Origin: Botryllus schlosseri
Lineage: Eukaryota
Assembly: GCA_051294905.1 (NCBI GenBank)
Contig: CM119372.1
Coordinates: forward strand, 4,466,001-4,530,000
DNA: 64,000 nucleotides
Direction of reading: 5' to 3'
The position numbers were made by a program, and so were the translations under genes. Under the pieces are notes generated by a model. That model did not search any database. It worked only from the letters and a program-made list of their open reading frames with translations, and was not told the origin of the DNA. Positions 745 through 62,036 of the stretch are shown one piece after another (position 1 is the first letter of the stretch; every line of letters starts with the position of its first letter).

Positions 745-3700
745 TCTGTAAATATGCGGCCCACGAGAGATGCGTCAACCAAGTTCCTTCGACGTGTATC
801 AACACTTACGTTAAATCGACGCGCGAAGCCACGGTAGGAATAGGCTGCAGTGTTTTCTCGGTAGTGGGTTAATTTTTTTTTATTGCCTTTTTTCAGAAAT
901 TGAACCACTTTTGGGTGGAGGGCAACAACGCGGGGCCTTGCGACAAATGCAAGAAGCCTATTAAATGTTATCAAGGTTTAACTGGAACTCACTGTAAATG
1001 GTGTCAAGCCACGGTTAGTATGTGCTAAAATCTGAATGATTTGTGTGTATCTCGATGCGAGTTTTCTTAATATTTCCGCCATTGACAACTATTCTCCATA
1101 TTTTGTTTGTCAGCTTTCCAATCCGGATATCAGCACCATTACAATTATATCGCACCTAATACGGATTAACTGTTAATCTTCTGCGTCAATTCAGATCTGT
1201 GTGCAATCAGGCCCTGGTGCAATTTTGCCAAATAAATCTTTAGATAAATGGTCAGCGCACAGAGGTGATTACTGATCAGTAAAGAAGTACTTCTACTTTT
1301 AGGGGTATTCAAGTAGATTTTGTCTGCCTGTGCTCCTTTCTCGAGTGGTTTTGGTTTTAACTATATCTATTTCTACCAGTAACAACGAACTTTGCCCGCC
1401 TCTGTTAGAGCAAGATGTTGTTTGACGTCACAGTTTCCCTGCATTCACATGACCTTTTTTGTTTGTTCTTATCCTTGTCGATACAATTTCGCCGAGCCTC
1501 TAACTATGAGCGCACAATTCGCGCTGTGACGCGCGCGAGTGTGTTCGTTCTGTTGCAATATCCTACCGAACTCTTTCTGACAATGCGTGAACTTTGTCAA
1601 TGCCTAGGATTCTTGTTCTGTCCTCGATGCGTGTTTTCGCAAGACGGCCTGCATTCAATGTAGAACAAGAAAGGGGTCGGCGTTTATTAGAGTATGGATG
1701 TTATACAATAGCCAGATTGACATCAAAGCCAACGCGTGTGTAGCAAATCTTTACTATGCAGTTGCAAAATCATTATAAGGCTTACATTGTAAATACATGG
1801 GTAGAAAGTAGGCGCGGTTTCTAGAGCTTCTCTGAGGTACAGAACTTCAATACACAATCGAATAATATATTCATATTGAAATAAACCCGAATATTTTCGG
1901 CTGACACTAGTCATGGCCTCATGGGTAATCGTCAGCCACTAGTAGGAAAAAAACATTGTATATCAACAATCGCGTCACCAGCAGTGTAGTTTCAAAATTT
2001 TCACAATGGAGCATGGCATAAAACGGACTGTCGACACTTTCTGGTTCCAAATTCTGCTTTCACACCATTTCCGATGGGTTCAAATGAGTTGAATGCGTAT
2101 AAATGCATCAAATTCATCATAGCGGAGACATATCACAGGGTGAGCTGGGTTCTATTTGCGTCGTCTTGTGGTGATAATCGAAAACAGAAACCACTCTGAC
2201 CCTGTAATAAATCTACATTGATAAATCTACATAAGAACTGGTGTATAAGGCTCGTCTTCACGCATTGTAACGAGCGTGAAAGCTAGATTTTGGGCCAGAA
2301 AGTGCAGTTCACCTGATTTGCACTCTATAGTACGGTGGAAATCGGAGAAATACACGATTTTCGTTTACTGCACTGTATAAAAGTAGTGGTATTTCGGATA
2401 TCTTTTCATTGCATGACGCTTTTGATCGGCTTGGTTTACAACAACATACATTTATTACCGAACAATCGTAGTCTGGCTATCCGCATATTGTGTTACCGCT
2501 TGTGCAATGTACATGTATAGTACGGTCAGTTCGTAGGATATCACGAAGTGATTTACTTCCGATTTCCGTTGCAGTATCACAACAAATGTGCGTCACACAT
2601 TCCGCCAGAATGCGATCTCGGAAAGATGAGACCGCACACGCTACCGCCGACTTGTATATATCCGAGAGTGCTGGTAGGTAGACTTTTTATAGTCGTCGCT
2701 TGCTGTTTTGCTGATTCGGCCGCCATATTTATAACTTGATGGCTTGTATATTATCTGATGACGCCGGCTGGGAGCTTGTTAACATGCTGGTTACAATGTC
2801 AGCGGCGTGGCTGTTTATTGGCGTTTGTGGTGATGAATTTGAACACCAGACTTCATGGATTTTATGCACTTAGTTGTGCAAAGCTTGGCCTTATATCATT
2901 CTAGAATCTAGACCTCCTGTGTGCTCTGAGACACTGGAACGACTCGGCAAAATCATTTTCTTCGCGAATTACTGTTAAAAATAACTCCGTAATGGAGACG
3001 TATTAATCCAGATGGCATTGTGATACCGTTTATAGCACGGGTAAATACCAGCGAGGCCTGTCAATAGAATGTATTGTGCTGAAAATTCGTTGATATTTGA
3101 GTTGATGATGCGCTTGGTATATGGAGGCGAGGCCATGTTGCCGTAACTACGCTTTTTCACGCGTCAAACTTCTAATCCTGGATATTATTTAGTATTTACG
3201 TTACATAGACTTAAATCCGACACGCAATTGCTGTATTTATGTCACTGCTCGGAACTTTTGTTCGTAAAACGTTGCCTTTCCTTCGAAGGTGTCGGTTTAA
3301 TTATACCCGACCTGCTAGTGTGAAAATAATTGAAACAAGGCATTGATTTACAACACGATCCGTTTTCTGAACTTTAGAATCTAAATAACATTGAATTTGA
3401 CTGTTTTCTACTTCTAAATCCTAAAGTAATTCGTATTATATTTCTAACTGCATCGTCATCATGACAATGTGAACGTGGCTTCTCAGTTTTGAAGGAGAGA
3501 CTTGGATTGACGACGAAATGCGGAAATGTTTGTCAACAACGCAACCGCATTTCGTCACATCAGTCGCGTTAACAAGTGGAACTCTATTTTAGGGTATCTT
3601 CTAGTAAAATGTGCTGCGAGGGTCATACCCGTGAGGGTCACATTTGTACCCGTGTATAACGGTCTGTGCAAGGGTGCGAATGCACACCTTTTTATGGCTA

Positions 3701-6700
3701 GGAGTAAGAGTGTACGTGACTGTACGATTATACAGTGCAATACATATAGGGAGTAGCGTGGCGAGTGCGCTATTAAATGGCTTGTTCTACTTCTCAGGAG
3801 CGACACCGGTCTCGCGAGGACAGTTCCAGCGAAGCCGTGGACGAATCAGGTGGGTTGATTACGCGGAACATACCGAAATAGCACAGAATACACGGCCTTT
3901 TATTGCGATTAGAAGCACACCGGCGCCGTATTCCAATCTGCGCACACGTATATACACGACACTGCGACACGTATATGCACCGCATACGCAAATGCGTGAA
4001 TAAAACCGCGGTCTTGCTTTTCTCTTGATTTGTTAGCGCTATCGACCGTGACGTGACGTCATAGTCAGCGTTGTCATCGTCTGTATTACAAACCTGCGTA
4101 AGTTTGTAATTCATAGCGTCTCTCGGCGTTTCGTAGCGATACCGCGACAATGCGGCGTGGAAATTTGAACCGGGCGAAAATAGGACTGACTTGTTGCTTT
4201 GTGTTTGTGTCTATGAGAAAAACGGAAGCGCTAGCATATATAGCACGCGGAAGGTAATCAAGTAATTATAATGGGACGAGAGATGGGCAGTTGGTTTTGA
4301 AACGATTGCGCGCGTCGGGGACAGCAGGATATGACCTTTAATAGTATAATGCACTATGCAATTGATTCTCAAACTTCAAAATATATGTTTCGGACCGGCG
4401 AACCTTCAAGAACCGAAATTCACCCAAATTTTATTTCCGACAAATGCGTGCAGCTGAAATGTGATATTGAAAACTGCGGATCATGATGTATTCTTGATAC
4501 TAGATATTAATACGTGGTTTCGCTTGGATTTTCTGCTAGGCGAAGCTCGCGAAGTCCCGTTAAAGACCGCTAACCTGATTGCCATTGTTCGGTGTCCTTT
4601 GGCAGAAATGTGACGCAGCCAAGTGCAGCTTAATTGCACGGTCCGAATTTAACGAAGTTTGTTCAAATGTCCCCGTAGCATTCGCGTATAACTATTCCGA
4701 AACGAGTTGCTGGCTACTTTCATACAATTTGTTGGCACACTTGCACCATTGCGACTTGGGAAGGACGCCCAATCGAGCTCTGTATTGCGACAACATACAC
4801 AAATACGTTCCACGCAAATGCACGCTCCGCGATTTGATACTTTGGTGCACTGGATGATCTCGATTCGTCATGACCGTAAATGCGTCAGATTGTCCACTGT
4901 CCATACGTCACCGCTTCCTAATTGCGCCTCTCAAAACCGCGTGGTTTTACGAGTCCCGCGCGCCTAGTTTTATTACCGCTGTATACCGCACTGTTAGCCG
5001 ACCGCGTTTACGTGAGCAGCCGCTTGCTTGTTGCACGTGTTTTGAAATTGAATGATGTATACATCGAAATAAACACGGATATTTTCGGCTGACACTCGTC
5101 GGGGGTAATCGTCAGTAATCTGTACAGAATTGAATATACGATGTTCTTTCCGATTCTCTACTAGTTGCTGACGATTGCCCCTGACGAGTGTCGGCCGTAT
5201 TTCAATACGAACACACTATCAAATAACATACTGAAGCTCTATCTGCAACTTGAACAGTCTGATCAATTTCTTAATTACTTTTTCGCGCAGGCGCAAAGGT
5301 CAACATGAAGAGAATGAACTCGATGAGCCTGGACGGGCAAGGTCTCATTATCAGCCCTCTCGCGGGCACGCAGCCCCTGCTCGTGTTTATCAACCCCAAA
5401 AGCGGAGGGAAACAAGGCGTGAGGTGGGTGAGGTCGTGTTGCGAGCTCGACACAACGGTTCGGAGCGTCGTACATGGTCGAACGGCAGTGCCCCCTCATT
5501 GTATGATTGAATTTTTTGCCCGTTTTGAACCACGGTATAGATTATTATAGAACGAACACTGATTGCGTCTCGTTTGACAATAGTGGTTTACTAGGAGATG
5601 TCGGTACCGAAGTACTATAAGTTTTTCCCAACTTGCTCTACTGAAGTGGTTATGTTTTATACTATATCTTATTAACAGATCTTCAGACTTTTTTACTTTG
5701 GATTTTATGAAGTAGTAAGTGGTTTTGCGATAATCCCTTGTCTGTATTATGAGTGAAACTGTCCTGCCTGCTGGGCGATAGAGCCCCGGTACCGCCGTGT
5801 CTGTATGTAGTTTCGTAAATTGCACATATTTGATTTTGATCATCATTTCTTTGGCGCTAAAACGCACCCAGCATCTTCGGAAGAGGCAACCTACGATTAT
5901 CTGATCAACCTAACGGAGGAGTATCTCTGAAACTACTTTTCGTATCATCATTTTCGACTTTTACTGAGAAGTAGTTTCAACATGTCCCGTAAATACTATT
6001 TCTACATGTAATTGAGTAGATATGTTCTGCGTTTACTTGAGTCACAACGCCGACTACTTTCACCGCCTCTTGAGTTTGCGCATGCGAGATATACACTCTC
6101 GCGTTAGCTCTACTATAACTATGTATCTTCCGCTATCAGATTACTGCGGAAAATGCAGCACCTCCTCAATCCGCGCCAGGTCTACGACTTGACGAAAGGC
6201 GGGCCCACGCCCGGCCTCAACTTCTTCCGGGAGCTGAAAAACTTTCGCGTTCTATGCTGCGGCGGCGACGGAACCGTGGGATGGGTCCTGGACTCAATCG
6301 GTGGGTAAAGTGCGGGAGTCGAAACGTGGGCGCCGCATGACGGGTACTTGTCAAGACCGAAGCTATAATTCTAATTTATTTGATACTTGCACCCGTTGAA
6401 ATGGGTGTAAACGCAAAATTGTGTATCACCAATTGCCTTTAGCATAATCGCGGCCTGCGCTATTGGCGGAAATGGTCGAGGTACACGATTCCCGTTTTCG
6501 GTGTTGATTTTGTGACAGCTGTCCCCTGGATTTTTGTGTTGAAAGTGTAAAGTTCTGCGAATTTGCATAGAGTATCCGTAGTGACGCGATAAGCTAGGCG
6601 CGGCCGCCGCGATTGCACGCGAATTCGTTTTATAGATTTCAACTTGGCGCGGTTGATTTATTGCTCATAAAACCTGAATTGCGTGTATGCAGACAAAAGC

Positions 6701-9700
6701 GGCATCACGAACCGACCTCCTGTCGCGATATTACCACTCGGAACCGGAAACGACCTCGCCAGATGTCTTCAGTGGGGAGGAGGTACGAATCTGGGCCTAA
6801 TTCTAATCTAATTTGTGTGAAATATTTCTATGCTCATTCTGCTTTCTGGTTCTGGAACTGTATAATGCGAAACGAGCCAGGCTTGCTGTGTACAGACACT
6901 TGCTATTCTCATGTTAGTGAGAATGAACTATTGTTTGATAAGCCGATTAGCCGATGTCCAAGTTATCGGGAATCCAGAAACTCTAATCCTTGTCAAATTT
7001 GGAAAGAGCTGTGGAGCTATAATTCTAATTTTAATGGAATTTGGGAAAAAAATCTTTATCTACAGCAGTTTTAATTCTAATACAATTTCGAAAAAGTCTG
7101 AATCTAATCTCGCTGATATGGCCTGCAGGTTACGAGGGCGGCAGCGTGATGAAATGCCTGCAGCAGATCGAGGCCAGCCAGACCGTGATGATGGACCGGT
7201 GGAATCTCCGGGTCGATCCGACTCCGGACACGGAGGAGAAGGGAGATCCGGTTCCGTTGAACATCATGAACAATTACTTCTCCATCGGCGTGGTGCGTAT
7301 TCGCTGTACACAAAGCTCGGCTGGTTTAGCTCTATACAGCTATCTTGTAGCATTTTCAGGAAAACGAGAAATTAGATTAGAATTAAAATTAGAGCATTGA
7401 AAAATTTCGCAAATTAGATTAGAATTACATCATCGGCATTTCGCTCTTAACTGATGTAACTAGCCAACGAGAATTGTTCAATTGTCGAAGTCGTGGTGAA
7501 ATGGGCTCGATACGCACCAACTCTTATTGAGATACATCACATGGTGAGAGTGGGTTCTGTATTCGCGTGCCACCCCAAGCCAAGAAGTTCAAAAGGTTAT
7601 AAACGTAAATTTTATTTGTATTTCGCGGCATTGATTTTACGCTCGCTGATCGCCGAGGGTTTACGTTCGCGTTAGTTCCGCCGCGGTCGGCGTTCCCGAG
7701 AAAATATTTGATTTGCGGAGGGTATTTTTAGACGGGCGGTGATTAAAATTTGATTTCGAGAGTAATTTCGTTTCACGCCGCGGATATTGAGTGCCCGGTG
7801 ACGCGTTTGATGTTAGTCACGGCGCTAATGCTTATCGAGTGGATGCTTAGCGTCGTATTAAAACAGGATGTTGTTGCGGCCATTTTTGAACGTATCGTTT
7901 TTAAATTAAATATACAAGCCGTGAAAATCTAAACGATGTTCGGGACAGTTGATGACGCGTTAGTCATCGATTTTTCTTCCAAGAAAATATTTGAGAGCTT
8001 CTTGGAGGTACAGAATTCAATATACAATTGAAGAATATATTCATACTGAAATAAACTCTGATATTTTCGGCTGGCGCTCATCAGGGATAATCGCCAGCAA
8101 CTGGTGCAGAATTGGAAAGAACATTGTATATCAACAATCGTATCACTAAACACAATATTTTTGTCTGACAGTTTTCAGCGGCTAATAGAGACTTGTTGAT
8201 ATACAACGTTCTTTCCCATTCTCTACTATGGTAGCTGACGATAGAAAATCCCTGGCGAGTGTCAGATGACAATATTCGGGTGTATTTCAATATGAATATG
8301 TTATTCAATTGTGTATACAAATGTCGGGGGCACGAACTTAAATGTACATAATGAACATTACGCAGTGAATATCTTGTTAAAATGTATGTTTTTCTTCGCG
8401 CTGACCGCCTGTTTTCATTAAGGACGCGATGATCTGCCGGAAATTTCACGTTATGCGGGAAAAGCACCCTGAAAAGTTCAACAGCCGAATGAAGAACAAG
8501 CTCTGGTATTTCGAGTTCGGCACGTCCGAGACGTTCGCCGCCTCCTGCAAAAAGCTTCACGAAAGCCTCAAGATCAAGGTAATGGTTTCGCGATTCTTAT
8601 AATTCATCGACAGAGGTCAAATTATTGTCGCTCGACAACTAATTACGAAACTATTTCAGGTCGACGGGAAAGAAATCGACCTCCAAAACGGGCAGAGATT
8701 TCAGGGCATCGCGGTGCTCAACATTCCGAGCGTGTACGGCGGCACGAATCTCTGGGGCACGACCAAGAAGCGTAAGAAGAAGCTTGCCCTTCCCGCCTCG
8801 GGTTCAAACAAAGAAGAGTTTGATATCAAGTACGCCGGGCAAGGTATGGTGATGTCTTCGGTTGCATTCAATATACATTTCCAGACAGGGATAATACGTT
8901 AGGTTTGTTGTTGTTAGGTTTGTTGAGACACTTGGACGGGGTTATGTAAATCTGCATCGCGACTTGGAATTTTAAATGCGCTATAAGCGAAAATCGTAAT
9001 TTCACACCCATTTCGATTGGTGTAAATCAATAACCAACAGTTAATTGTCGTAAGCACGAGAATGCCGAATGTCTGTACAGCAAGCTTGGCTCGTTTGGCA
9101 CTATACAATTCTCCTGTATCATTTTCAGGAAAACGAGAATTAGATTGGAAATGAGACTAGAGTATAGAAATATTTCACAAATTAGATTAGAATTAGATTA
9201 CCATCGTTTAGATTTAATTAGTCTAATTATTCAACTAAAATTATCTAAAGTTGTCTGAGTCTGGCGTGATGGCTATTCGGCGAAACATTCATTTCGTTAT
9301 TGGTTGCAGAAGAATGATTATCAAATACCTCGTGGGTGTCGGCTCGGTTTCATTTGTATTTGTATTTGAATAAACACCGCCCGACGCTATTTATATCGCC
9401 TGTGACGTGTGCTGCTGCAACAGAATTTCCATTTACCACCAGCAGCGTTGTTTATTCGACATCCGGTTATTGTGAACATAACCCATACGACGTCTCGCGA
9501 GTTGATTCGTGTAAATCCAACGCAAGTACAGCGCTTTCCATACCCGTAACGTTTTCTTCGCGAACTCGACCGGCTATTCGATAATATTGATAGTTTGGTT
9601 AAAAAGCTCCTGCGTGCCAAATTCGGTTCAATTCCAAAAGAATAGTATTCAAGGTGTGAAAGTCTAAAATTCTCAATTGGCAACTACCCACCGTAAATAC

Positions 9701-11947
9701 TATTATTTAAAATCCAAAATTTTGAACGCCATTAACTTCGGTTCTACCCGAGTATAGCCTAGCTTCTAGACGCTGGAATTGAGCCAAATTTGGTGTGCAG
9801 CGCTTTTTAGCCAACCTAACAATTCTGTCAAATACCCGGATAACTTTAAAGAAATAAGATATTTGTGAACAATGCTAATATACAGTATTGACATTTTAAT
9901 AATATGCGTAATCGTCAATCCGTGTTTATATTATAATCGACCGTTGTTTTCCAGGCATGGGCGATAAGTTTTTGGAAGTGGTCGGAGTGGTTGGCGCCAT
10001 GGAGGTGGGCCAGATTATGGCCGGTCTGAGAGCCGGCAACCGACTCGCGCAGGGACAGGTCATCGAAATCAGGTAGGTTTCGTTTATCTCTGTGGAATAG
10101 TCTAATCACACACAGTACAAGCTACCGTTATATAAATGTGTATTTCACGATATAGCGTAAGGTGTAGCCTAAATCAGGGGAACTTCAATTTCTAGTAAAT
10201 GGAGACCTCTACTTACTTACCAACTTGTATTTACATCTGATTGCCTCTTTTCCTGGTCAGCCGCGATAGTATTCTGATTGGTTTGTTATTCTGCAGTACG
10301 ACGAAGCTGTTTCCGATGCAAGTCGACGGCGAGCCGTGGATGCAAGTTCCTTGCAAGGTGATTGTTTTGCATATTTGGTGATGCGATTGTTGATATACAA
10401 TGTTCTTTCCTATTCTTTACTAGTTGCTGACGAGCGTCGGCCGATAATATTCAGACTTATCTCAAAATGAATATACCATTCCATTGTATGTTGAAGTTCT
10501 GTACCTCCGAAAAGCTCTTCAAAGTTCTTTATAACGCAACGGCCGATGCGTGGCCTGATAAATATTTAATAAATATCCGACTCTATCGGATTTATACTTT
10601 TGCGCGTAAGCCAACCAAGGCGATTGAAACGGCTGCTCAAATCGATGGCGAACTAAATAAGGAAAACCAGCTACAAAATCTCGCCACCTGCTCCGTCTCT
10701 TGAGGCGCAGGGGCGTTAATCCCCGTTGAAAGCGCACTCATCTTCCTTGATGAGTTTGATAAGGCGCATACCTTAGATATGACCAAACCCGGTCGCATTG
10801 ACTTCCAGTAATTGTGTACTGGTTGTCGGAGTTTCATAATTTTTGATGACCTTGCGTGCGAACCGGACTTGTGTAATGTAAACTGCTGGACTTTTAAAAT
10901 TCGCAACTACAACTAGAGCTGTGAACTTCTCGCACATTTTACAATGTGCAACTTTAACTCCTCACTGCTCAAAAGTTGCAGCTACAACTAGTACTACTCC
11001 CTTTTCAAAAGTCGGAACTATGGAACTAAAACTACTCGCTTTTGAAAATCTGCAACTAGAACTAGAACTACTAACTTTTCAAATGTTGTTACCAGAACTA
11101 GAACTAGAACTACTCGGTTTTCAAAAGTAGCAACTAGAACTACCCACTTTTAAAAAGTCGTAACTGAAACTAGAACTACTCACTTATAAACTGCGCAACT
11201 AGTACCTGAACTAAAACTTTTGAAAATCCGCAACTAGAACTATACTAATAAACCGATAGTTAGCTGAATGCAGGGTTGTAACCAAGTCACAAGGTTCCGA
11301 GTCACAAGTCAATATCACTTTTATTGTTTTGACTCGAGTCAAATCGAGTCATTTTCAATTCACCCTCGAGTCAAGTCCGAGTCCAAGTCATTGAGCTGAG
11401 GGTCGCATGTATATTATTATAATTTTCCTCACTTTTAGCAGTTTCTGGTCGCATTTTCAAGTACCAGTACTAATCGGGCGAAATCAAAGTGGGGTGGTTA
11501 CTTCACAATTCTTCGAAATTACGATGAAATGTCGGTCTTAGCCGTCTCAGTCTCGAGTCAATGACTTGGTTCGAGTCATGCGCAATGACTCGAGTCCAAG
11601 TCGAGTCAATAGACAGATTGACTCGAGTCGAGTCGAGTCATTTCAGTATTTTTTTAAAATGACTCGAGTCAAGTCGGGTCATCAGGAAATCGTGACTCAA
11701 TCGGACTCGAGTCGAGTCATGACTCGAGTCATTACAACCCTGGCTGAATGTGAACTAACTAAATTGGTAGTTTGTACATGTACAATGTACATGTATGGTG
11801 CGAAGACTGAAATAAACCGCCTTCTCTCTATTTCAGATCGAGATCAACCACAAGAACCAGGTACCCATGCTGATGGCGTCGCCCTCCCAGCATTCTTCAA
11901 TATGGTCGTGTTTCGGGCGCAATAAGACTGTGTGCGAAGACGCGTGA
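745..11947 (+). CDS. DGKB: Diacylglycerol kinase, type I (DGK alpha/beta/gamma-like), 5'-partial, 13 coding exons visible
   Basis: GT-AG exons with consistent phases: 745-833, 897-1013, 2575-2673, 3798-3849, 5291-5423, 6140-6300, 6693-6782, 7129-7292, 8423-8578, 8660-8843, 9955-10072, 10297-10357, 11837-11947 (TGA). C1 domains (CKYAAHERC..., [36 protein letters not shown]). Catalytic motifs [37 protein letters not shown]. Accessory domain [56 protein letters not shown]. The symbol is approximate: probably a co-orthologue of DGKA/B/G. Confidence 0.95.
7992..8320. mobile_element. Hammerhead-bearing dispersed repeat (Penelope-like/retrozyme-like fragment), inverted pair
   Basis: Consensus gattgttgatatacaatgttctttcc..ttctctactagttgctgacgattacccctgacgagtgtcagccgaaaatattcgggtttatttcaatatgaatat...gaagttctgtacctccaagaagctcttc. 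Other copies at about 1822-1975 (-), 5055-5240 (inverted pair), 10380-10522 (+), 21083-21237 (+), 33165-33210 (-), 45085-45170 (+), 52635-52660 (+), 61450-61622 (inverted pair). Confidence 0.7.
8056..8098 (-). ncRNA. Hammerhead-like motif copy with canonical CUGAUGA core
   Basis: Minus strand reads GCTGGCG-attatcc-CTGATGA-G-cgccagc-C-GAAA-atat-cagag. The cleavage site and stem I are degenerate. Confidence 0.5.
11271..11742. mobile_element. hAT-type MITE rich in GACTCGAGTC subterminal palindromes
   Basis: TIR CAGGGTTGTAA...TTACAACCCTG, perfect TSD GCTGAATG. Inserted into an (ACTAGA/ACT)-rich repeat spanning about 10900-11775. Other copies at about 49634-50312 (reverse), 52825-53281 and 58115-58569. 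Confidence 0.92.
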
Positions 11948-20613: not shown

Positions 20614-21127
20614 CTTATAGTTGACCCCAATCAAGTTTCTCAAAGTGATATTCATTGATGAAATATCAACCCTGCTTTTGACAACAACCTTGATAACCAA
20701 GACCGCAAACTGCGAAGCTGCTCACAAGTATACCATCAAATGCTTTCAGGCGTCAGAGCGGAAGGAGGGTTAGGTCGTGTCTGCTCTACATTGCATTGTC
20801 GGTACTATATCTCATCCGTGACTATGACATCACGTGAAAAGTATTCATGTAAATAGTTTGGTAAAGTAAATTTGGTGGAAGGTTTACTTACTTTTGACCG
20901 TTATAACGATTATAATATAATCGGTGGCGGCTACTTTAAACTGCAAGATGCGTCTATCAAACAATCACTAATGCCGCTACAATCTTCGAAAAAAAAATAT
21001 TCAGCCGTTACCCAGATATCTTTTAAACGGGTTTTGTATGCCTTTTCCAACTTATCCAAAAACTAAAATCCAAAGAAAATATGATACGATTGTTGATATG
21101 CAACGTTCTTTCCATTTCTGTACTGTT

Positions 21128-21171
21128 GTTGACGATTACTACTGACGAGTGTCAGCCGAAAATAATCGGGT
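21128..21171 (+). ncRNA. Minimal type I hammerhead-ribozyme-like motif (best-preserved core of a dispersed repeat family)
   Basis: GTTGACG-attacta-CTGACGA-G-tgtcagc-C-GAAA-ataa-TC-gggt: CUGANGA and GAAA cores, 1-bp stem II, NUH triplet AUC. Stem I is imperfect in this copy (acta/gggt; family consensus accc/gggt). Confidence 0.6.
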
Positions 21172-21400
21172 TTATTTCGATATGAATATAGTATTCAGTT
21201 GTATATATTGAAGTTCTGTACCTCCAAGAAGCTCTGCAAAGTAATTTCGTTTTATATCGTAGTGCAAGTAATAGGCTAAATTGCCAAGTAGGTACTTAAA
21301 ACAAAGTGGAAGTTATTTGTTAGTGAACACTTCTGAAAACAGTTATGTTCGCTATGTTCTCCGCAGTAACATCAGCTATAAGGCGCTGATGGTTGCCACT

Positions 21401-30400: not shown

Positions 30401-31876
30401 ATCGTCACCACGCCTGCCGCTATGTAGATTGGGGCAAATATCCATCCAAGTAACGTCAGAGTGATCATAGCCTGTAAACGAACGAGCGAAACAGTGTGTT
30501 TCTTCCAGAATTGAACGAATAGAACATTTTCAGCCTTTCTTAGTTAGATTATAATTGGAATTATAGCTGCATCTTTTTTCCAAATTAGATGACAATTGAA
30601 ATTATAGACACACAGTTTTTTATCCCAATTTGATTACATTTGGAATTATAGATACACATTTTTTCAATAAGATTATATTTATTAATATAGACACATTTTT
30701 TCCAAATTAGACTAGAATCAGAATTGCAGCTACACATTTTTTTAAAAGTAGACTATAATCATAATTGTAGACACACATTTTTTTCAAATTAGATTAGAAT
30801 TAGGATTATCGATACACATTTTTTTCAAATTAGATTAGAATTAGAATTATAGCCACACAGCTTTTTTTACAAACTAGATTACATTTGGGATTATAGATAC
30901 ACATTTTTTGAAAATTAGACTAGAATTATAATTAAAGCTACACATTCTTTCGATTAGATTATATTATAATTATTAGATCATTATTAATTATTAGATTATA
31001 CTTATGGATAGGCAGTTTCTTTTTCGGATTAGATTAGAATTGGTGTTACTAAATTTACGAAAACTTGGAGATTGTCCCAAGTTCAGTTCATATCAAATCA
31101 GAGCTCAGGCTGGGCACGGAATTGGACAGGGACAGCTAGAAGATTTTCAGTTTTTCCAAAATATATTAGAATTAGAATTATAGATATGTAGTTTTTTTCG
31201 AATTAGATTAGCAATAGAATCGCTGAATTTGTGGAAAATTGGATATTACATCAAGTCCAATTCATAACGAATCATGGTTCATTCTCAAAAGTAAGATAAT
31301 GGCAAATATCTGTACAGCAAAACTTGTCTCGTTTCGCACTATACAGCTCTCTTGTAACATTTTCAGGTAAACCAGAATAATTAGATTAGAATTAAAATTA
31401 GAGCATTAACCTTTCGCAAATTAGACTACAATTGTATCACCGGCAGTTGGCTCTAATAGTCCAATTATACAATTAGAATTATCTGTAGTTCTCCAAGTTT
31501 AACTATCTATTTCAAGCTTACGTTCCATTCGAAAGCGCCAACTGCGATACCCGCGGCTGCACCAGTCCCGGCCAAACCCACGAAATGCCCGCTTCCGATA
31601 TTGCTCGAGAACAGAGACGCGCCCACCGGTAGCCAATGCATATTTCGCCCAGCTAGAAAGAACCCATTCACGCTGCCTCGATTCGTACGAAACATGGTCT
31701 GAATATATCCAAACCTGTTACCTGACTCTAGTCTTATACTAATAATGTGCATTCAAAAACCTTACCCATAGTCCGACTGCTATTATGAAAATGAAATATA
31801 CAACGATCACTGCAATGTCGCCTCCTTCCAATTCCGCCTGGCTCGGTACCGTAGTAGTGCCGGCAGTAGTTGACAT
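21401..31876 (-). CDS. SLC5A: Sodium/glucose cotransporter (SGLT, SLC5A family), paralogue A, about 668 aa, 14 coding exons
   Basis: Minus-strand exons 31876-31766, 31698-31522, 30471-30307, 30034-29848, 29252-29047, 28808-28673, 27832-27716, 26649-26508 (GC donor), 24551-24383, 24318-24199, 23587-23492, 23430-23350, 21767-21659, 21591-21401; total 2007 nt, open frame. Motifs [86 protein letters not shown] and a terminal TM helix. Confidence 0.95.
24686..26332. mobile_element. Composite hAT-type element in SGLT-A intron 8 with several nested insertions
   Basis: TAGGGTTGCCATA...TATGGTAACCCTA, perfect TSD GCCTACTT. Contains a MITE at 25825-26172, another at about 25051-25257 and a LINE-tail-like segment ending AATAAA..(GAT)n at about 25330-25557. 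Confidence 0.85.
30530..31497. repeat. (ATTAG/AATTAG)-rich dispersed repeat family, here with tandem subunit expansion
   Basis: Recurrent aaattagattagaatt..atagatacacattttttt units and a shared core tgtacagcaagcttggctcgtttc.cactataca...cattttcaggaaaac. Copies at about 6800-7110 (reverse), 7305-7450, 8930-9263, 22990-23329, 28090-28638 and 43452-43786. Confidence 0.8.
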
Positions 31877-33588: not shown

Positions 33589-36500
33589 CTACGCGTAAAA
33601 TGCAAATAAAAAGACTCCTGCGCATAACATAACCAGACAAGCTAGATTCACGATGGTAGCGGGCCACCTTTCCTCTGTGATATCTGTAATCATCGCAGGT
33701 GGCGGGCCCTCCTGTGGCTTCACTTCGTCTAATCCGCAGAACAAATCGATGACTTTTCTACAGAGCGATTTTTCTAAAATGAAAAGATTGTTGTTTTACA
33801 AATCGCACTTCCTGAACAAATAGGTCGAGCGGTGTGGTATTTATCGGTAACAGCAGAATAATTCACAACAGTTGTAGCATAGATCTGGAACCTATGCAAT
33901 GCATGTCGTGTTGACAGCGCACAACGAACTCAGCTTAGACTTTGAAGATGAGCAATTCATGGAAATTACCGGGTAAAATATATCGTGACATTATGGTTTA
34001 AACACATTCATTCCTCCAAGACCAATAACTTCTTACCTTCCTTCCTTCATTCATTCATTCATTCATTCATTCATTCATTCATTCATTCATTCACTCATTC
34101 ATATTGTCAAGTCGAAGTGAAGAAGTTAATCCTGACATGCGCGCCAGAAGGAATTACTTCATTTACGGCAGTGGTCCCCAAACGGTGGGGAATTCCCCAC
34201 TTGTGGGGAATTCAATGGTTTCTGGTGGGGAATAGACGAATTTGTTTAAAATTATATAGAGGACAGTCTACATATTCACGGAGACACATGCACAATTACC
34301 GTTACCAGTTAACTGCTCTGGAATGTATGTAACGAAAATTATGTTGCGTGTGGTTCACAAAACCTCATTTTTAACTCTGATGGCCAATCATGGCGTCACA
34401 AACGCATCCAGCACGACTAGTGTGACGTGAAATAACGCTTTCGGAAAATTTTGAGCGTTACTGGTATCGGTTCACAATACGTTTCATGTTGTAGTTATAG
34501 GCGATTGTCTTGCGTACTGGCGCGGTTGTGTGTCTTGTGTAGTCAAACCAGCAAATAGCTGCCACGTGATGACAAAAGTGCTGGGTAGTGGGGAACAGGA
34601 CCGTAACTGCCTCACCTCAAACCACCTAATTGGTGGGGGGGGGGTGAGCTCGAAGGGGCTCAAAATAATTTCGTGAATTAACATAAATTGAAGTATTTTT
34701 GAAAATTTATGCCACTTTTTCAAAAAATTTTCGTGCTTGGTGCACGATTTAATATTGCCGAATATCTGATTATTGGGTGCCCTGCCCCCACGAAAATGCG
34801 TAGAATTAATAGAAATGGAGACTTCGGCGTCGGCCATTGCTGCGCCATGACGCACCGATGCATATGAAGTTATAGGCCATGTAACATGCAACCCCGAGAA
34901 GTGTGCCAGAACCATCAGCAGCGAGAAGACCTTGGCCGAGAAGGAATGCCCTTGTGGTGACCCAAAACTTATATATATATACAATATACTTATATGTTCA
35001 ATTGGCTAAATAGCTGGCACCGAATGTTCCTGTCCTGGCGATATGAACACCACAGGACAAATGCCATCCCGAAGGGGAAAATTATTTGCCAGTAAAGCAA
35101 TACCAATTTGAAATCGTGTGTTCCTTTTAGTTTGTCGATATCGATATCTTTTGACATAGCAGAAATAGGAGGTCACGAAATAGCATAATGTAACGAAGTC
35201 AATATACCAACGGGTCCGCCCGAAGATGTTCAATTCTTATTTAGGGGTCCTACCTTTTCCAACACACTTCACTCAGATCTACCGGTAAATCTGATTACGT
35301 GAGCAGAGAGGGGATAAATATTGACAGCAAAATATACACAATGCCCGATCATATTGGCCGATTCAAACACGGATTATATAAAAATTTCGCGCTTCGCGCG
35401 TTTAGTTGAAATAAGGCTACGAACTAAACAGTAGACCTAATGTAGCTGATAAGTTGCAGGGGATAGGGTACAAGCTCAGCGGGGCTGAGGGGATTCTGGG
35501 GGCCCAAAACCAACGTTTTTTTGGCCGGGCTGACAAAGTGTTGTTACGGCCCTGGTGGGAATGAAGGCTCGGAATAAATCTGAAGTGGGGAATGAAGACG
35601 AAAAGGTTGGGAACCACTGATTTACGGGGTCCTCATAATCTTTACTTTCATTCAGTTTCATCCTTACCTGACACTGTTCAGTATTCGTTATATCCTAATC
35701 TAAATGAAGTATCTCAATCCACTACACATGGACAATAATTATAGTTATATTTTTACACACTCGACTTGATCATATCGGGTCTATAAAGGTGTATGTTGGC
35801 TTGGCATTTAACGAAGTGTTGATTTACTATAACTGTAGTGCGTACACTGTACAGTAGGGCTCTTCAAAAATGACTTTTTTTCTCAAATCGTACTGGCTAC
35901 TTGATAAAATTGTTAGGTTACCTAATTTAAGCCTACACACAAAATTGGATTCAATTCCAGCCAGTAACCGCTTTGCTACACGAGAATAAAGTTTCTATTT
36001 ATTATATAAAAATAAATAACAAAAAATTTCAAAATTTTCTGTTCACCTCATGAAAGTGTTAGGCTGTCTATAGAAACGATGCTCACCAAATTTGGTTCAA
36101 TTCCAACCAGAGGAAGCGGAGTTATTGCCGTCGAAAAATTTTGATTTGAATAAAATAGTATTTACGGTGACCGATTCTTTGTTTATTTATTATAGTTGTG
36201 CTCACCGTAAATACTATTTTATTTAAATCCAAATTTTTCGGCGGCAATAACTCCGCTTCCACTGGTTGGAATTGAACCAAATTTGGTGAGCATCGTTTCT
36301 ATAGACAGCCTAACACTTTCATGGGGTGAACAGAAAATGTTCAAATTTTTTATTATTTATTTTTATATAAGAAATAGAAACTTTCTTGTCGTGTAGCAAA
36401 GCGGTTACTGGCTGGAATTGAACCAAATTTTGTGTGTAGGCTTAAATTAGGTAACCTAACAATTTTATCGAGTAGCCAGTACGATTTGAGAAAAAAAGTC

Positions 36501-39500
36501 ATTTTTGAAGAGCCCTACTGTACAGTACATCGTACAGTATGGTTAATTGGTTATCTCCAAAAAATACCAGTGCCTTCTGTATAAATTAGCAACCCTTTTA
36601 CTTTTCAGCCATTGATTACTGATTACGATATAAATCCAGTACAGCTTTTGGTTATGACGATACGGAACAGCAACCGTAAAGGATTGCAGCCATGCAGCGG
36701 CACCAGCAACCTGCGTGTGGTGTACCTAAATGTGCGAAATATGACGTCAGTCACGCTTGAATGAATTTGGTCGATTTGTTATTGTCGATCTATCTATAGA
36801 TAACTAACCTACCGCAGGTTAGTTATCTATAATCTATCTGCAGCAGTCATTTGACTTGAGAATTAGTAGCCTATGTTAGTCGGTTGTCTGTCATTGATAT
36901 AATAGATATTATTATTCCAAATAGATGTAGAATGATAGCGTGTGTGACTGCTGGATTGCTTGATATTACTGTTATCTTTACCAAAGCTCATAAGTCCAGC
37001 ACCATCCGCCACTACCTTCGAGTACACGCATGGTGGTACTATGACATATCCCCACCTTCAGCGTGATGAAAATAGGCATCTTCACTATGGTTTTGCTCTT
37101 TGTTTTTCTCACTGATCCCCTCGTCGTGTTCCAACGCTCTGTTATCGTGGCCTGGATGCGTCGCGGATTTCCGATGCGACTCGATCGGAATTCGCTTCTT
37201 TTTGCTGAGCCTAGTCCACCATGTCAGCCGGTACAACTAACAGATATACAGATTGTTATCAGAGGCGTCAACCTGCTAACCGATAAGTGCGTTGACTTCT
37301 CACATGTTTTTCGTCTATGGGAGGTGTGAACAAACTTATAACAACCGCGATGATCACAGTCACAGCTCCAAGTATCAATGCGAAGTATAAGTAATGAACC
37401 TGAAAGTAAAAAAAATCATCACTATTTTCATTGTGGTCAATAATGTAAATAAACGGAATATCCGTACGAATCTACGCCACGGGTCGGCATACTATCGGAC
37501 TACCAACTTACCAGAGATGAGCGGATTTGAAATTTCTATGTCCTAATCCAATCCAAATCCGAACCTTCAAATCCAAATCCAAATCCTAATCCATAACTTT
37601 TTCATATTCATGTCCATATCCAATCCTAATCCGATTCCAACTGGAAATTCAGAAAAAATACTAATTTATGCAATGGAGGGATTCGAAAATTTTCTTTCTC
37701 AACCAACGATTCACTTGATTCAAGATAACTTGCTAACCATGAGTACATTAATAACTGATCTGAATAAAGTTTGTCGCCATTCGCCAAAAGACATTTCAAT
37801 CTCCCAGAAAATAGGTAAATCCAATCCAAATCCTAATCCGTTTCGAAAAAAAATCTCTAATCCAAATCCAATCCAAATCCGACAAAATTTCACAAATCCT
37901 GTTTTTTCAAAACCTAATCCTAATCCATGCTCATCTCTGCAACTTACAACAAGCGATTTTGGTCCACTTCGCATTCGCATCAAATAAAACTAATTGGGGC
38001 ACCGCAACCGTTATTCAGCTAACATTTACAATTTACATGATTCTTGTTGTTTCTGATACCTCATCTACTTTTCTGGTGTTGACTAGTGGTATTTACTGAC
38101 ACGTTATAAAGCTATGGAGCCTCAGCACAAGATTGAAAGAGTTGCCGACACCTTATATAGGTTTTGAATTACTTGGTACGTTGAAGAGTCATCCAACATA
38201 TTTAGAAATATTATAGAAGACTTTCATATACTAGGCTGCATATGTCAAAGATACTAACTTTTGCGACCACTGCTGGTCTTGTGTCTTCCTCTCCGCATAG
38301 TGGCGCGGCGTAAACAAAATCTAAAATCATTCGTATGATCCCAATGACCAACCCGATGGTTAACGACCAAAACGCTCCCTGAAATGAACAGGATCGCACA
38401 TCACTGACACCCTTAATTTCAGGGTGCTGTAATTCATTATGAGCACCGTTTCGTTCAATCTCGGCCAAAACATCGCCATGACGAATATTACGGCAATAGG
38501 CGGAGCCAGGAAGCTTGAAACCGACTGAATGTAGTCGAAAAGCTGTCCGCTTGCAGCAACCTGCACTATAGGCACCCATGCGATGCTTACACCGACCATG
38601 CACAATATGAAGACTCTGAAATTATTATTCATAAACTTACAATCGACTGACTTTTCTAGAAAACGAAAAATGATTCTCCCGTACCGGCCGACCACCATCA
38701 GCTCTCGCTGCGAAGCATTTTTGCGAATTTTAGTCCAAATGTCACACGTGAACAAAGTCGAGCTACTGTTGAAGACGGATGTCAGTGACGACATAAGGGC
38801 GGCCATCATCACCGCAAGCATCAGCCCTGTTTTTATTTTTGTCAGATAAGGGGGAGACATTAAAATTGCTAACGTCCCCCCGTACCTCTTAGTCCTGTTG
38901 GCATTATTTCCAGCACCAGCTTCGGATAAGCCACATTGGTGCATCCAACTGATGTTCCGCAATATTGTTCACAGAGTTCCGGGACTGCACATCCAACAGC
39001 GTCTGTAAAGACGGAAATATGATGACCGTAACGGCAACATTAATAGCATTTGTTCTCATTTTGCGATAGTGGGGAATATATAATGTAGTTGGCCCTAGTC
39101 GATTCGGTGGCGCTGGCAGCACGACGGCTACCGGTTACAGTGTTCGCGCTGATACGAAGTACAAGCTGAATTGATTGCGAATACTGCTGTAGAACATGTG
39201 CAATGCGCATGTAGACTATATTGTATAAAATCAACAGATGGGAACGCATTGGAACTACGAGTGCCCTAAGGCCCAAGGTAGCAGAAGACTTTCATTATGC
39301 TACACAGTGAGAAATATAAATGGATAACGTTTGCCAGGATACGTAAGGTTCTACCAAGTCAGTCCAAGAAAGGATAATGGCCCATTTAGGGTAGGCTTAC
39401 CATACGTCGTCTTTTAAGAGGATTTGTCCTCTTTTTTGACTTTTTTGAAAGTGTCCTCGGAGGACGCCCTTTTGTCCTCTTTTTTGAGATTTTGTCCTCT

Positions 39501-39861
39501 TTTTTAGGATTTAAAGCAGATTTAGAGCAAATTGCGAGTGATATGCCATATATTAGCACAGACGTGAAGCTCCGACGGGTGAAAAACGGTGAATTTAGCT
39601 CTGAGCGAAAAGATGACCTTTTTTTTTTTTTTTTTAGTCATCCACCTAGCAATGTGGGGAGAAAAACGGTATTTTGAGTTCTGAGCGGAAGAGATGACCT
39701 ATTTTTATTTTTTATTTTTTTTTTTAGTCATCCACCTAGCAATGTGGGGAGAAAAGCGGTATTTTGAGCTCTGAGCGGAAGAGATGACCTTTTTTTTTTA
39801 GTCATCCACCTAGCAATGTGGGGAGAAAAACGGTATTTTGAGTTCTGAGCGGAAGAGATGA

Positions 39862-39894
<33 letters not shown>

Positions 39895-43363: not shown

Positions 43364-44430
43364 ATGAACGGCTGTCTCGCTTCTAGGTGGCTTGAGTTCC
43401 CCTGGTTCAGAGTCAATCATCTGGAAAATGATACCAAGCGTACACCTAATGCCAGAGTTGGACAACTATAGGCTTAACTATTCCAAATTAGATTATAATT
43501 GGAATTGCTGAATTCTCGAAAGCTTGGAAACTGAATCGATGTCATGCGGTTTATATCAAATCAGAGTTCATTATTAAATGTATGGGAATGGCAAGCGTAT
43601 ATAGAGCAAGCGTGGCCCGTTTCGCACTATACATTCCTACTGTAGCATTTTCAGGAAGACCAAAAATTAGGTTACAATTAAAATAGAGCTTCACTTTTTT
43701 TACAAATTAGATTGGAATTAGACTACCGGCAAATCTCTCTAATTAATCTAATTAGACATTTAGGATAATCTAGCTGTCCAGGTCTGCCTACAGATAAAGC
43801 CCTCATCGCTCCACATTAACCTCAGTTAAATCCACACTCCACTCAATGTAGTTTAACATTATAACTACGGCAGTCCATAGCGGACAACCTGACTGGCTCA
43901 CAGATTTTAATTTTTCAAATAATCCGTTTATACTTCACGAGCCTTTTACATAATGGTAATTCACGATATGGAATGAAGGCTTCTGTGGACTGTTGAACAG
44001 TATTTGCGGATGCCTTTTGTTGCCATATGCAGCGACGGCCTTTTGGGAGTTTTAGAGCAAATACTGTCATATTATGACACAATTTTACATCGGTTGTTGG
44101 TTTGTAACATTGTGATATGAGCGAGATGTGAGTATTCAATTCCGCTTTGACTACACCAACATATACACATACAGCGTATTATATGAGCACTATAAATCTA
44201 AATATAAATACTTTTCGTTCGTTCCGGCTATGGTTCTCCCCTCTCACACTGCTCCTGGTGAAAATGTGAGTTCAGCCCCTTACGATCCCCCTTTGTCCTT
44301 CACGTCCAAATATTTGCGTTGTACTCACTGTAAGAGAAAAAATAGGGTACCGTATACGAGCTAACACGTACCGATGCATAGATTTGGAATTTCACGATGT
44401 TTGAGATCAATTACAGAATGGACAATATGT

Positions 44431-44892: not shown

Positions 44893-46359
44893 CAATATGT
44901 GGTCATTGGCGTACCACGCTATAGAATGGATGGATGCTTCTGACATAGCTGAGCATTCGATAGCTGAAATACATCAATCCGTGAAATCAAAACTAGAGTT
45001 AGTGAATATAATGCAACACGTTTACGTAGAGTTAAGATTGTTGTAGAACAATTCGTAGGTATTGTAGACAACTATAAAATGTAGCCTGCTTTCCCATTCT
45101 CCACCTGCTGCTGACGATTACCCGTGATTAGTGTCAGCCGAAAATATTAGGGTTCATTTAAATATAATTCAACTGCAACACAAATGGGTCGCAGGTCAAC
45201 ACCAGAATCCCTTCCTAAGTGTCGGAAGATTATCTAGGCCCTTTCTCGCGGCACACCCCCCCCCCCCCTAGCAATGCAATCGGCCCACTATATTGTGCCG
45301 CAACACACCGGTTGAGAACCACTGGGCCCTATGTGCTCACTCATTTTACCGAGTAATTAAATCGTTGCTCATTGGGCGGCTTTGGGACTAAATAGATCAA
45401 AGTAAAGCTGATAACCGATAAACTGGGAAAGAATATGTATGCCTCGGCTAGGTGTTTACAGGTGGAAACACAGAAAATACCGATATTTTCGCCTCAATTT
45501 CGTTGGTCTTGGTCCTTGAATAATATCTTTGTGGTAATATTGTTATAGTCAGGAACTATAGGTGACCCAGTTGCCATATGGGACAAGCTTCCACTTCAAT
45601 TTAGAGTACACGTACACAGGTACGCAGCTGGAATTATACTGTATTTTGAAGGTGGCAAAAAGTTGGTAATAAAGAACTGATGTTAAAGACACACTGTTTA
45701 TTAATAGTGTAATGTGACGTAGCAATGCTCAACACAACAATTGAGGATTTTTGTACCTCTTTCCCCCCGCGTGGCTATACACCAATGCGTAATTCGTATT
45801 TATGTATATGCAATATTTCGAATGAATTACCATTTGCGCTTTTTCGGATGTAATCGGAACGGAATTTGCGACATCTGACCCTGTTAACGTGCTCAATTTA
45901 AAGGCGTGTTCACTGTTCAGTTCATAGACCTACATATTTTCTTCGATTGGAGTTGTTCCTGTACCAACTAATCACACTGACGCATGTGACCAGCTGGTGA
46001 GACCGTAGCTCGAAATCAGATGGCAAGGGCCGGTAGACTTGATGGTAGGTAAGGTAAGCTAAGTTGGCTAACCTAACGCGGCATTACTAACTTGGCAGAT
46101 GAGCTATAGGTGCGGTTGCATGCATGTAGACCTAATATATAAACGAATTTTAAATCTGTTGACTGTTTCATCGAAAACCATTTCTTTTCTTATTTGCAAT
46201 GTTTCTCGATAATAACTGTCACGGATTTTCGATTTCCTATCGCCAACGGCAAGGTAACTCTTGCTACTATGATAGTCACGAACAATCTATGGCCATCTGA
46301 GCTGAGTTTTCACAAAAACACGGACCGTCACCAGCGTCGACTTCAGCTAAGAATTGACA

Positions 46360-61300: not shown

Positions 61301-62036
61301 GATACTGATGCTTTTTCAATCGAATTTGTTGGATGGAGCGTTATTTTCAAGGGGTAAGTTGATCATAAGTGTTGCAAGTGAAGAGATGTGAACATACCGC
61401 ACTGAACATATTTTCCAATCACCACGCTATGCTAACATAAATAATTATTTGAAGAGCTTCTTGAATGTACAGAATTTCAACATACAATTGAATAATATAT
61501 TCATATTGCAATAAACCCAAATATTTGATATATGTTCCTTCCAATTCTCTACTAGTTGCTGATCAGTCTCCCTGACCAGCGTCAGCCGCAAATATTCAGA
61601 TTTATTTCAATATGAATATATTATAAAATGAGAAATAATATTGATTTCCCCTTTACTATAGTGATCATGCCACGTAACCACACCAAGTAGGCCTATAGAT
61701 TTTAGCGTTCTGGGAAATAACACACCTTGACCCCGAGATGCTAGAAACATAATGTTTTCTTCATCTTACAGTAATTTTTATTCCATTAGCTTCAATGGGA
61801 CAGCACCAGTTTTGTCTGAAGAGGGAATATCACCAAACTCCACACTAGAAATCTTGCTATCCAACAACTATTGGAAGTTGAAATCGAATTCGAAAGAATT
61901 TGCCCTAGATTTGAAGCGTCAAAATGACGCTGTGACGTCGGATTCCGGTTACACTGTACTTGTGGGCTTGAATCGCGACTCAAAATCAAAACTGAGAGGC
62001 TACGGTCTCTGCAGAGTTTGTTTTGTAAGCTCTTGA
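46360..62036 (+). CDS. Large secreted mosaic protein: signal peptide-VWA-CCP-VWA-CCP-CCP-9x EGF-CCP-CCP-unassigned C-terminal domain
   Basis: Exons (first junction uncertain): 46360-46555, 46713-46834, 46915-47063, 47499-47657, 47730-47907, 49173-49355, 50464-50597, 50664-50744, 50923-51082, 51145-51304, 52030-52265, 52327-52463, 53357-53450, 53515-53685, 53757-53863, 53930-54036, 54489-54626, 54901-55041, 56049-56224, 56531-56672, 57705-57754, 57820-57917, 58696-58817, 58878-59134, 60974-61155, 61211-61353, about 61772/61790-62036. VWA motifs [11 protein letters not shown] and [11 protein letters not shown]...LITDGKSQD. Sushi Cys/Trp patterns. cbEGF starts DIDHC, NINEC, DVDDC, DVNEC, NIDEC. 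Confidence 0.88.
48040..48225 (+). mobile_element. Second tRNA-derived SINE family
   Basis: Degenerate A box and B box GGTTCGAGTC. Body ccagaa...cctaagtgtt.gaag..tatctaggctcctt is shared with about 13170-13330 and 45190-45245. Confidence 0.6.
48777..49025. mobile_element. MITE with AGTAGA/AGTA repeats
   Basis: CAGAGGTGGTCA...TGACCGCCTCTG; similar fragments at about 5930-6070, 13370-13500, 26380-26475 and 40665-40800. Confidence 0.65.
49399..49572. repeat. 82-bp tandem duplication
   Basis: Unit aattatgcatcaaagtatgatgg...gcacaggcga starts at 49399 and 49481, plus a 10-bp third start at 49563; the units differ by one substitution. Confidence 0.95.
50108..50300. mobile_element. 193-bp MITE nested in the TIR of a GACTCGAGTC-family element
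   Basis: TIR CAATGTTCCCTCTAA...TTAGAGGGAACATTG, perfect TSD GTTACAAC, internal TGCGCA palindromes. Confidence 0.92.
51350..51616 (+). mobile_element. tRNA-derived SINE
   Basis: Pol III A box (TAGTGTAATGG) and B box (GGTTCAATCC) in a tRNA-like head, followed by a non-tRNA body and a (CT)n tail. Degenerate head also at about 24085-24150. Confidence 0.7.
55201..56004. mobile_element. hAT-type non-autonomous element with GACTC/GAGTC repeats
   Basis: CAGTATTGGGA...TCCCGAACACTG; TSD ctgggcgg/ctgggagg. Confidence 0.8.
56989..57649. mobile_element. hAT-type non-autonomous element
   Basis: CAGGGGTTCCCAAAC...TTTTGGTAACCCCTG, perfect TSD CTATAGTA. Related diverged copy at about 29275-29791. Confidence 0.88.
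59213..60207. mobile_element. hAT-type non-autonomous element with internal 175-bp tandem duplication
   Basis: CAGGGGTGGCCAACC...GAGTTGGCCACTCCCA; TSD ttgtacac/ctgtacac. Duplication units 59369-59543 and 59544-59718. Confidence 0.78.
60223..60596. mobile_element. Internally deleted copy of the fold-back MITE family
   Basis: TAGGGCTGTTCAAAAATGAC...TTATTTTTGAACAGCCCTA. Perfect TSD CTGTACAT (60215-60222, 60597-60604). Confidence 0.9.

Follow-up and report, generated by a model that had tools for sequence, protein, structure and literature searches.

A 6-bp pseudoknot covaries between families in minimal hammerhead motifs of Penelope-like elements from Botryllus schlosseri

Analysis of a 64-kb window of the Botryllus schlosseri genome (the whole stretch of DNA under study, contig CM119372.1, positions 4,466,001 to 4,530,000), together with related loci elsewhere in the genome, revealed a 6-bp pseudoknot that joins loop II to the 5' flank of a hammerhead motif carried by Penelope-like retroelements. 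The pseudoknot is a real, well-supported structural variant, and the window copy in which it was first flagged is an ordinary decayed insertion. An initial annotation had proposed the pairing of loop II with the 5' flank from that copy; the pairing is strongly supported, by covariation between independent element families and not by the window copy.

A repeat of ~160 bp contains the motif, and about ten copies or fragments of this repeat lie in the window (Table 1). Genome-wide, the core pattern gave 8018 matches in total, main family included, compared with 5 for a reversed control, and a U3-A8 core variant gave 1375 matches compared with 64 for its control. The family rows have the features of type I hammerheads, namely CUGANGA ... 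GAAA ... UH, C3-G8 (or U3-A8) and G10.1-C11.1, and the window copy departs from them at U16.1 and C17. Stem I forms across the cleavage site with 4-7 pairs and shows matched changes between families, while being disrupted in the window copy. Stem III, whose two sides likewise vary in concert from family to family, consists of AAUAUU, AAGCUU, or palindromes with one or two central mismatches, for which cleavage as a dimer is predicted. A 1-bp stem II and the lack of an extra base after A9 are common to all 18 rows of the family alignment. The catalytic positions G5, A6, G8 (or covarying A8), A9, G12, A13, A14, A15.1-U16.1 and a non-G at 17 are kept across families, whose proteins share only ~45-67% identity. 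Rfam models, hammerhead models included, gave no match in the window at the gathering score and none in five loci at E values up to 10.

Several related repeats were observed alongside these families. An abundant lineage (L108, L138, L065) combines the U3-A8 core with the pseudoknot, as does one metagenome contig. A multi-copy variant (L110, L113, L118) has 4 of the 6 pseudoknot pairs and a change of U16.1 to C, and has been amplified though predicted to be inactive. Further multi-copy repeats (L094-L096, L097-L098, L099-L101, L143-L150) contain a hammerhead-like core (CUGANGAG or UUGANAAG ... CGAAA), with no evident stem I or stem III.

By its sequence, the repeat is the pseudo-LTR of a Penelope-like element with a minimal type I hammerhead motif. 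At least 1900 candidates of the motif repeat were found in the 495-Mb genome, with the end of an ORF upstream of the younger copies. One locus contains a 765-aa open stretch with RVT_1 above cut-off, and 1799 homologues were identified among 7994 scored candidates. Matches to GIY-YIG were weak and under the curated Pfam cut-off (E 0.014 and 0.0003), with PF01541 carried by 2 of the 120 homologues listed. In a sister family, 2778-bp tandem units identical to one another each contain an intact ORF of 850 aa that shares 58% identity with the 765-aa stretch, and here the motif sits between the stop and the next ATG. In every family with an adjacent ORF end, the motif lies 93-260 nt downstream of the stop of the RT and GIY-YIG-type ORF. 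The distance from the predicted cut to the ATG is 19 nt in the tandem family; in the main family, a corresponding ATG follows at 14 nt. The pseudo-LTR, the tandem arrays and the inverted 5'-truncated copies, with inverted partners in the window and at other loci, are Penelope-like traits. The published descriptions of this anatomy include tandem units, inverted truncated partners and a terminal-repeat hammerhead (PMC4209133; PMC8557442), and minimal type I hammerheads whose stem III is palindromic are described as cleaving only as dimers (PMC4209133).

The head-to-tail family with the 2778-bp period is very young, and was located at G000:C6:30409360-30417727, C1:22034516-22040105, C2:4939673-4942484 and C8:876776-879587 (L217-L220). 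Two units that were compared are identical, and the cleavage position of this family is occupied by U, not C.

Table 1. Layout of the flagged motif and positions of related repeat copies in the 64-kb window
Feature	Position	Strand	Remarks
5' strand of the pseudoknot helix	8093..8098	-	GCUGGC here; family form GCUGAC
Linker G between pseudoknot strand and stem I	8092	-	Invariant, 18/18 family rows
Stem I, 5' strand	8085..8091	-	One change relative to family form
Catalytic core C3-A9 (CUGAUGA)	8078..8084	-	Intact
1-bp stem II (G10.1 = 8077, C11.1 = 8069) around a 7-nt loop	8069..8077	-	
First base of loop II	8076	-	
3' strand of the pseudoknot helix, within loop II	8075-8070	-	
Core G12-A15.1 (GAAA)	8065..8068	-	Intact
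Stem III palindrome remnant and cleavage-site base	8059..8065	-	AAUAUC vs family AAUAUU; A vs family C17
Stem I, 3' strand	8051..8058	-	3/4 first positions pair (one wobble); second pair broken
ATG corresponding to the putative ORF start of the element	8042..8044	-	In the young family form, 14 nt downstream of the predicted cut
Whole 5'-truncated pseudo-LTR copy of the Penelope-like element	7983..8150	-	~89% identity to young copies
More decayed inverted copy, directly upstream of the 7983..8150 copy	8193..8316	+	83% to young copies
Same-family copy	21082..21248	+	U·G wobble at pair 2
Decayed copy	5134..5240	+	U·G at pair 3, GAAA lost; inverted partner 5132-5046 (-)
Decayed copy, insertion in core	1818..1978	-	
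Copy deleted between two direct CUGACGA repeats (flank, core)	10373..10530	+	Stem I gone
Decayed copy, core mutated	45079..45182	+	
Inverted pair of decayed same-family fragments	61443..61629		

In the flagged copy, the two minus-strand segments are GCUGGCG (8098-8092) and CGCCAGC (8076-8070) and form seven Watson-Crick pairs, as first described. The family form, GCUGACG with UGUCAGC, was likewise confirmed, and the wobbles reported for two other copies are present at 21128 and 5167 (initially given as 5168). The helix crosses stem I, and is thus a pseudoknot once stem I forms. Alignment with young copies revealed differences at 16 of 157 positions, including U16.1, C17 and stem I, and because these are altered the copy is predicted to be inactive. 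From its sequence it is a decayed and probably dead minimal type I hammerhead, with U16.1/C17, stem III and stem I broken.

Sister lineages were identified by pattern searches that left out the main family, each having its own stem I, stem III and flank and loop strands. Compared with GCUGAC/GUCAGC in the main family, their flank/loop strands were ACUGGC/GCCAGU, ACUGAC/GUCAGU and ACUAAC/GUUAGU, and further GCCGAC/GUUGGC, CGUGCC/GGCACG and UGUGCC/GGCACC. Scanning of metagenomes yielded 2 loci from 166 candidate stretches, on contigs with related ORFs (59% and 39% identity) that have UCUGAC/GUCAGA and UGCAUU/AAUGCU in the same register; support beyond this genome thus consists of two contigs. 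For the flank ACUAAC, each of the first 100 exact matches listed has the loop GUUAGU, though the pattern permitted GUCAGU.

In an alignment of 18 family representatives, the 6-bp helix is paired in 99 of 107 cells (92.5%), with double changes at all six pairs. The covariation score was 0.61, compared with 0.18 for shuffled alignments, and was reached by 0 of 500 shuffles, a count that is not a probability, the rows being hand-picked and related. Slid registers scored at most 0.09, with pairing of at most 34% across the 18 rows. Four different Watson-Crick types occur at pair 1, and pair 6 varies in the most distant row only. The pairing is weaker in the large UGUGCC/GGCACC family, which has only 5 pairs, and in F12 and F14, which have 4-5. 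Targets that match the core with no stem I or stem III (L068, L071-L077, L094-L106, L143-L145 and L148-L150) were left out of the alignment.

As a check against bias in the choice of rows, a filter blind to the helix, which considered nothing but stem I, stem III and U16.1/H17, was applied to all 146 distinct core matches. At least 5 of the 6 helix pairs were present in 62 of the 70 rows that passed, compared with 29 of 210 shifted flanks; among the rows that failed, many of which are decayed family copies, the figure was 33 of 76. A quick tree of ORF ends gave three clades in this genome and the outside rows, with supports of 100, 87 and 100. The helix changes fall on separate clades of this tree, and pairs 1-5 require at least eight double changes.

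The helix had initially been described as 7 bp long, which is correct for the window copy. Across the families, G faces U at the seventh apposition in 4 rows and faces A or G in the other 14, so that no family row has G-C there. Being mostly unpaired, it leaves a helix of 6 bp, and a seventh Watson-Crick pair was rejected, as the 4 of 18 rows that pair at this position all do so by G·U. The linker G might form a non-canonical cap.

The double change in the window copy proved to be poor ground for the helix. At pair 5, exact counts genome-wide were 3624 for A-U, 34 for G·U, 40 for A·C and 3 for G-C, the pair-breaking single change (A·C) being as frequent as the pair-keeping one (G·U). The three doubles compare with 0.43 expected (Fisher p 0.009, or 0.06 without the window copy, which had been chosen for having the change). 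Because older copies have more changes everywhere, an internal control was used, in which copies changed at flank position 5, 3 or 4 were scored at the loop partner base and at the same bases as non-partners. The hand-tallied samples comprised 87 copies for position 5, 100 of the 104 listed for position 3, and 78 for position 4, from which one indel-like row had been removed. For flank positions 5, 3 and 4, respectively, 6, 8 and 2 copies had a change at the loop partner, compared with 6/178, 10/165 and 4/187 for non-partners. This amounts to 16 of 265 copies with a changed partner vs 10.7 expected, an excess that is not significant (P 0.08, or 0.12 without the window copy); 8 of the 16 changes restore a Watson-Crick pair, 1 gives a wobble and 7 break the pair. 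With partner changes near chance level, a lone compensatory change is no evidence. An older subfamily with G-C at pair 5, considered as the source of the window copy, was rejected, since the three double copies have no other change in common.

An unselected sample of 37 copies from 704 kb showed difference rates of 7.2% for helix bases and 7.4% for core bases, vs 10.4% for outside bases. Single helix changes in this sample kept the pair in 10 cases and broke it in 13, contrary to the initial statement that other copies vary mostly by G-U wobbles. Double changes kept pairing in 3 cases and broke it in none, a count that includes the window copy and one gap-affected row, and this 3:0 split leans against pure chance. 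Selection would act only on transposing master elements while scattered copies decay neutrally, and the private double change of the window copy is therefore most likely chance, fitting neutral decay; the claim that it supports the pseudoknot falls.

The motif resembles the minimal hammerheads of Penelope elements described by Cervera and de la Pena (2014, PMC4209133) in being of type I, in lying in a pseudo-LTR beside an RT/GIY-YIG ORF, and in having G10.1-C11.1. It also shares with those elements a short palindromic stem III implying dimers, the U3-A8 variant, and thousands of truncated copies. In contrast, 56 of the 56 representatives in Fig. S3 of that paper have a stem II of at least 3 pairs, and nearly all have an extra base between A9 and G10.1, whereas the Botryllus motif has a 1-bp stem II, no extra base, and the 5'-flank pseudoknot instead. 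In the available text of a 2017 review, Penelope hammerheads are described as usually lacking the characteristic tertiary interactions (PMC6155905).

A second resemblance is to the PK hammerhead (PDB 8YDC; Zhan et al. 2024, PMC11300833), in which G10.1-C11.1 and a 6-bp pseudoknot take the place of helix II, the other strand lying 5' of helix I. In 8YDC a 5-bp helix IV, joined to helix I by an A-rich triplex (A-minor) linker, carries this 5' strand as its loop, whereas in the Botryllus motif a single G leads to stem I. Four of the six pseudoknot pairs in 8YDC are Watson-Crick, with A:A and G:A caps, compared with six Watson-Crick pairs and a possible non-canonical seventh in the Botryllus motif, and the Botryllus stem III, unlike that of 8YDC, is predicted to require a dimer. 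A helix IV in the Botryllus motif was unsupported by predictions on 16 family rows, with no enclosing helix predicted in 14 and a marginal one in 2. Lacking helix IV and the triplex linker, the motif was not placed in the PK hammerhead family.

The replacement of loop-loop contacts by a base-paired brace of stems I and II was previously described by Perreault et al. (2011, PMC3088659), with a pseudoknot-type brace predicted in ~40% of hammerheads across types I-III. For one tested example, in which stem II is 1 bp and the pseudoknot 6 bp long, disrupt-and-rescue showed that the brace is needed for fast cleavage (PMC3088659). That example differs from the Botryllus motif in being a type II hammerhead from a metagenome, and the stem-length analysis in the same study excluded type I motifs that are highly repetitive. 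Four loop-II words of the Botryllus families were not found in the available part of its alignment file. The proposal of an undescribed variant thus holds only for the setting: pseudoknot-braced hammerheads were published in 2011, and their occurrence in Penelope elements is without description in the available parts of the literature surveyed (including PMC7229834, PMC10085705, PMC6765202, PMC6155905 and bioRxiv 10.64898/2026.07.22.740005), while it may already be shown in the study of hammerhead variants from Penelope elements by Lunse, Weinberg and Breaker (2017). Since the pseudoknot design was already known, the surprise is moderate.

At one end the helix directly abuts C11.1, except in two families that have an extra base, and a single loop base stays free after G10.1. 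Its start lies at a distance of 8 nt (7-9) from the core, next to the distal end of stem I, which has up to 7 pairs. As it shares no base with stem I or the core, the helix most likely takes the place of stem II when the fold is active, and we consider it probable that the helix is an activating brace standing in for stem II. The initial suggestion, that the helix substitutes for the contact of loop I with loop II and stabilises a stem II of 1 bp, agrees with the solved PK hammerhead structure. In the proposed mechanism, the helix would stack on G10.1-C11.1 and hold stem I parallel to itself, and two motifs in a tandem transcript would pair via their stem III palindromes. Cleavage after position 17 would then free a unit-length RNA 14-19 nt upstream of the ORF AUG. 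The brace would be kept by selection on transposing masters only, with scattered copies left to drift.

Among indexed sequencing runs, no RNA data set was listed as a carrier of the motif. Raw RNA reads for two families, with coverage on both strands, showed no pile-up of RNA ends at the predicted cut, although fragmented cDNA libraries need not show such ends. A Penelope hammerhead from Anolis likewise gave no ends at its cut, yet cleaves in vitro with protein (PMC11167929), and for this reason the missing read ends are a weak counter-argument. In nearest-neighbour folding the hammerhead is not favoured and competing hairpins are; ViennaRNA cannot score pseudoknots or dimers. In the minimum-energy fold of the main family, loop II pairs with the core (CUGAC), and C11.1-A14 pairs with U16.2-G1.2. 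A loop II-core hairpin as a conserved inhibitor was rejected, since it occurs in the main family's fold only and is absent where the core or loop differs.

A fuller version of the brace is offered tentatively, and we regard it as unlikely in its entirety. The motif would be the most compact pseudoknot hammerhead, without helix IV, in which the one-G linker caps the helix by a non-canonical pair and cleavage occurs only in dimers; the brace would speed the cutting of tandem transcripts 14-19 nt before the AUG, and the cut or the fold would start cap-independent translation. This last step is motivated by fungal RNA viruses, for which a link of type I hammerheads just upstream of start codons with cap-independent translation was recently proposed (PMC13725137).

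The helix could instead form as a hairpin around the core during transcription, delaying or blocking cleavage until refolded by a protein or by a partner copy. Invasion of the core or of stem I is what one would expect from such an off-switch, whereas the helix overlaps neither, and its register is fixed to C11.1 and to the length of stem I, as in the activating PK hammerhead geometry; we therefore consider it unlikely. The 3' strand of the helix is nevertheless made before that of stem I, the simple hairpin is predicted at -7.4 kcal/mol compared with +0.1 for the bare hammerhead stems, and the helix is present in the minimum-energy folds of several families. There are also precedents, in the alternative tertiary structure reported to attenuate a viral satellite hammerhead (Miller and Silver 1991) and in the requirement of the Anolis Penelope hammerhead for protein in cleavage (PMC11167929).

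We give still less credence to the fold being kept for binding of the element protein, or for positioning reverse transcription or translation, with self-cleavage minor or dispensable. All catalytic positions are kept across families with proteins as divergent as those above, which argues against this role, although the lack of read ends at the cut would fit it, as would the Anolis catalytic mutants that left insertion in vitro unaffected (PMC11167929). The same applies to the lineage with U at position 17 and to the abundant lineage with a U3-A8 core, but U3-A8 is a known core covariation (PMC4209133). Very improbable is the absence of any RNA role, the helix being chance or a DNA-level inverted repeat matched by hairpin-templated mutation: the main family does have CUGACGA twice, 14 nt apart, the flank repeating the core, and double changes that keep pairing are slightly in excess among decayed copies, but other families retain the helix without this flank-core repeat, dead copies would also be subject to correction at the DNA level, yet their partner changes are near chance and half break the pair, and the four Watson-Crick types at pair 1 and the fixed register across families also stand against it.

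As a probable activating brace, the pseudoknot occurs in a group of hammerheads, those of Penelope elements, that have been described as minimal, slow and without tertiary braces. Its retention through at least eight matched changes points to selection on the RNA fold in transposing elements. The clade lends itself to a clean disrupt-and-rescue test of the importance of cleavage for Penelope transposition, and the genome has tandem arrays that are young and intact. The findings also suggest that descriptors requiring a paired stem II may miss a whole class of animal hammerheads.

The deletion from one CUGACGA repeat to the other, seen in one window copy (Table 1), was also found at L152:7692-7593, with slippage between the repeats as its probable origin. 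Other repeats in the window include a long inverted repeat at 35846-36526, with 325-nt arms 96% complementary and a 31-nt spacer, likely a foldback or MITE-type element, which has relatives near 42863 and at 60214-60501. Inverted terminal repeats at 39382-40025 and 44419-44902, ~5 kb apart, 88-96% complementary and with internal tandem duplications, likely belong to a DNA transposon. A 41-bp AT-rich tandem repeat at 30544-30973 is linked to a dispersed family with copies near 7300, 9050, 23150, 28150, 31300 and 43600. Near-perfect tandem duplications of 175 bp (59369-59719) and 82 bp (49399-49572) were also observed.
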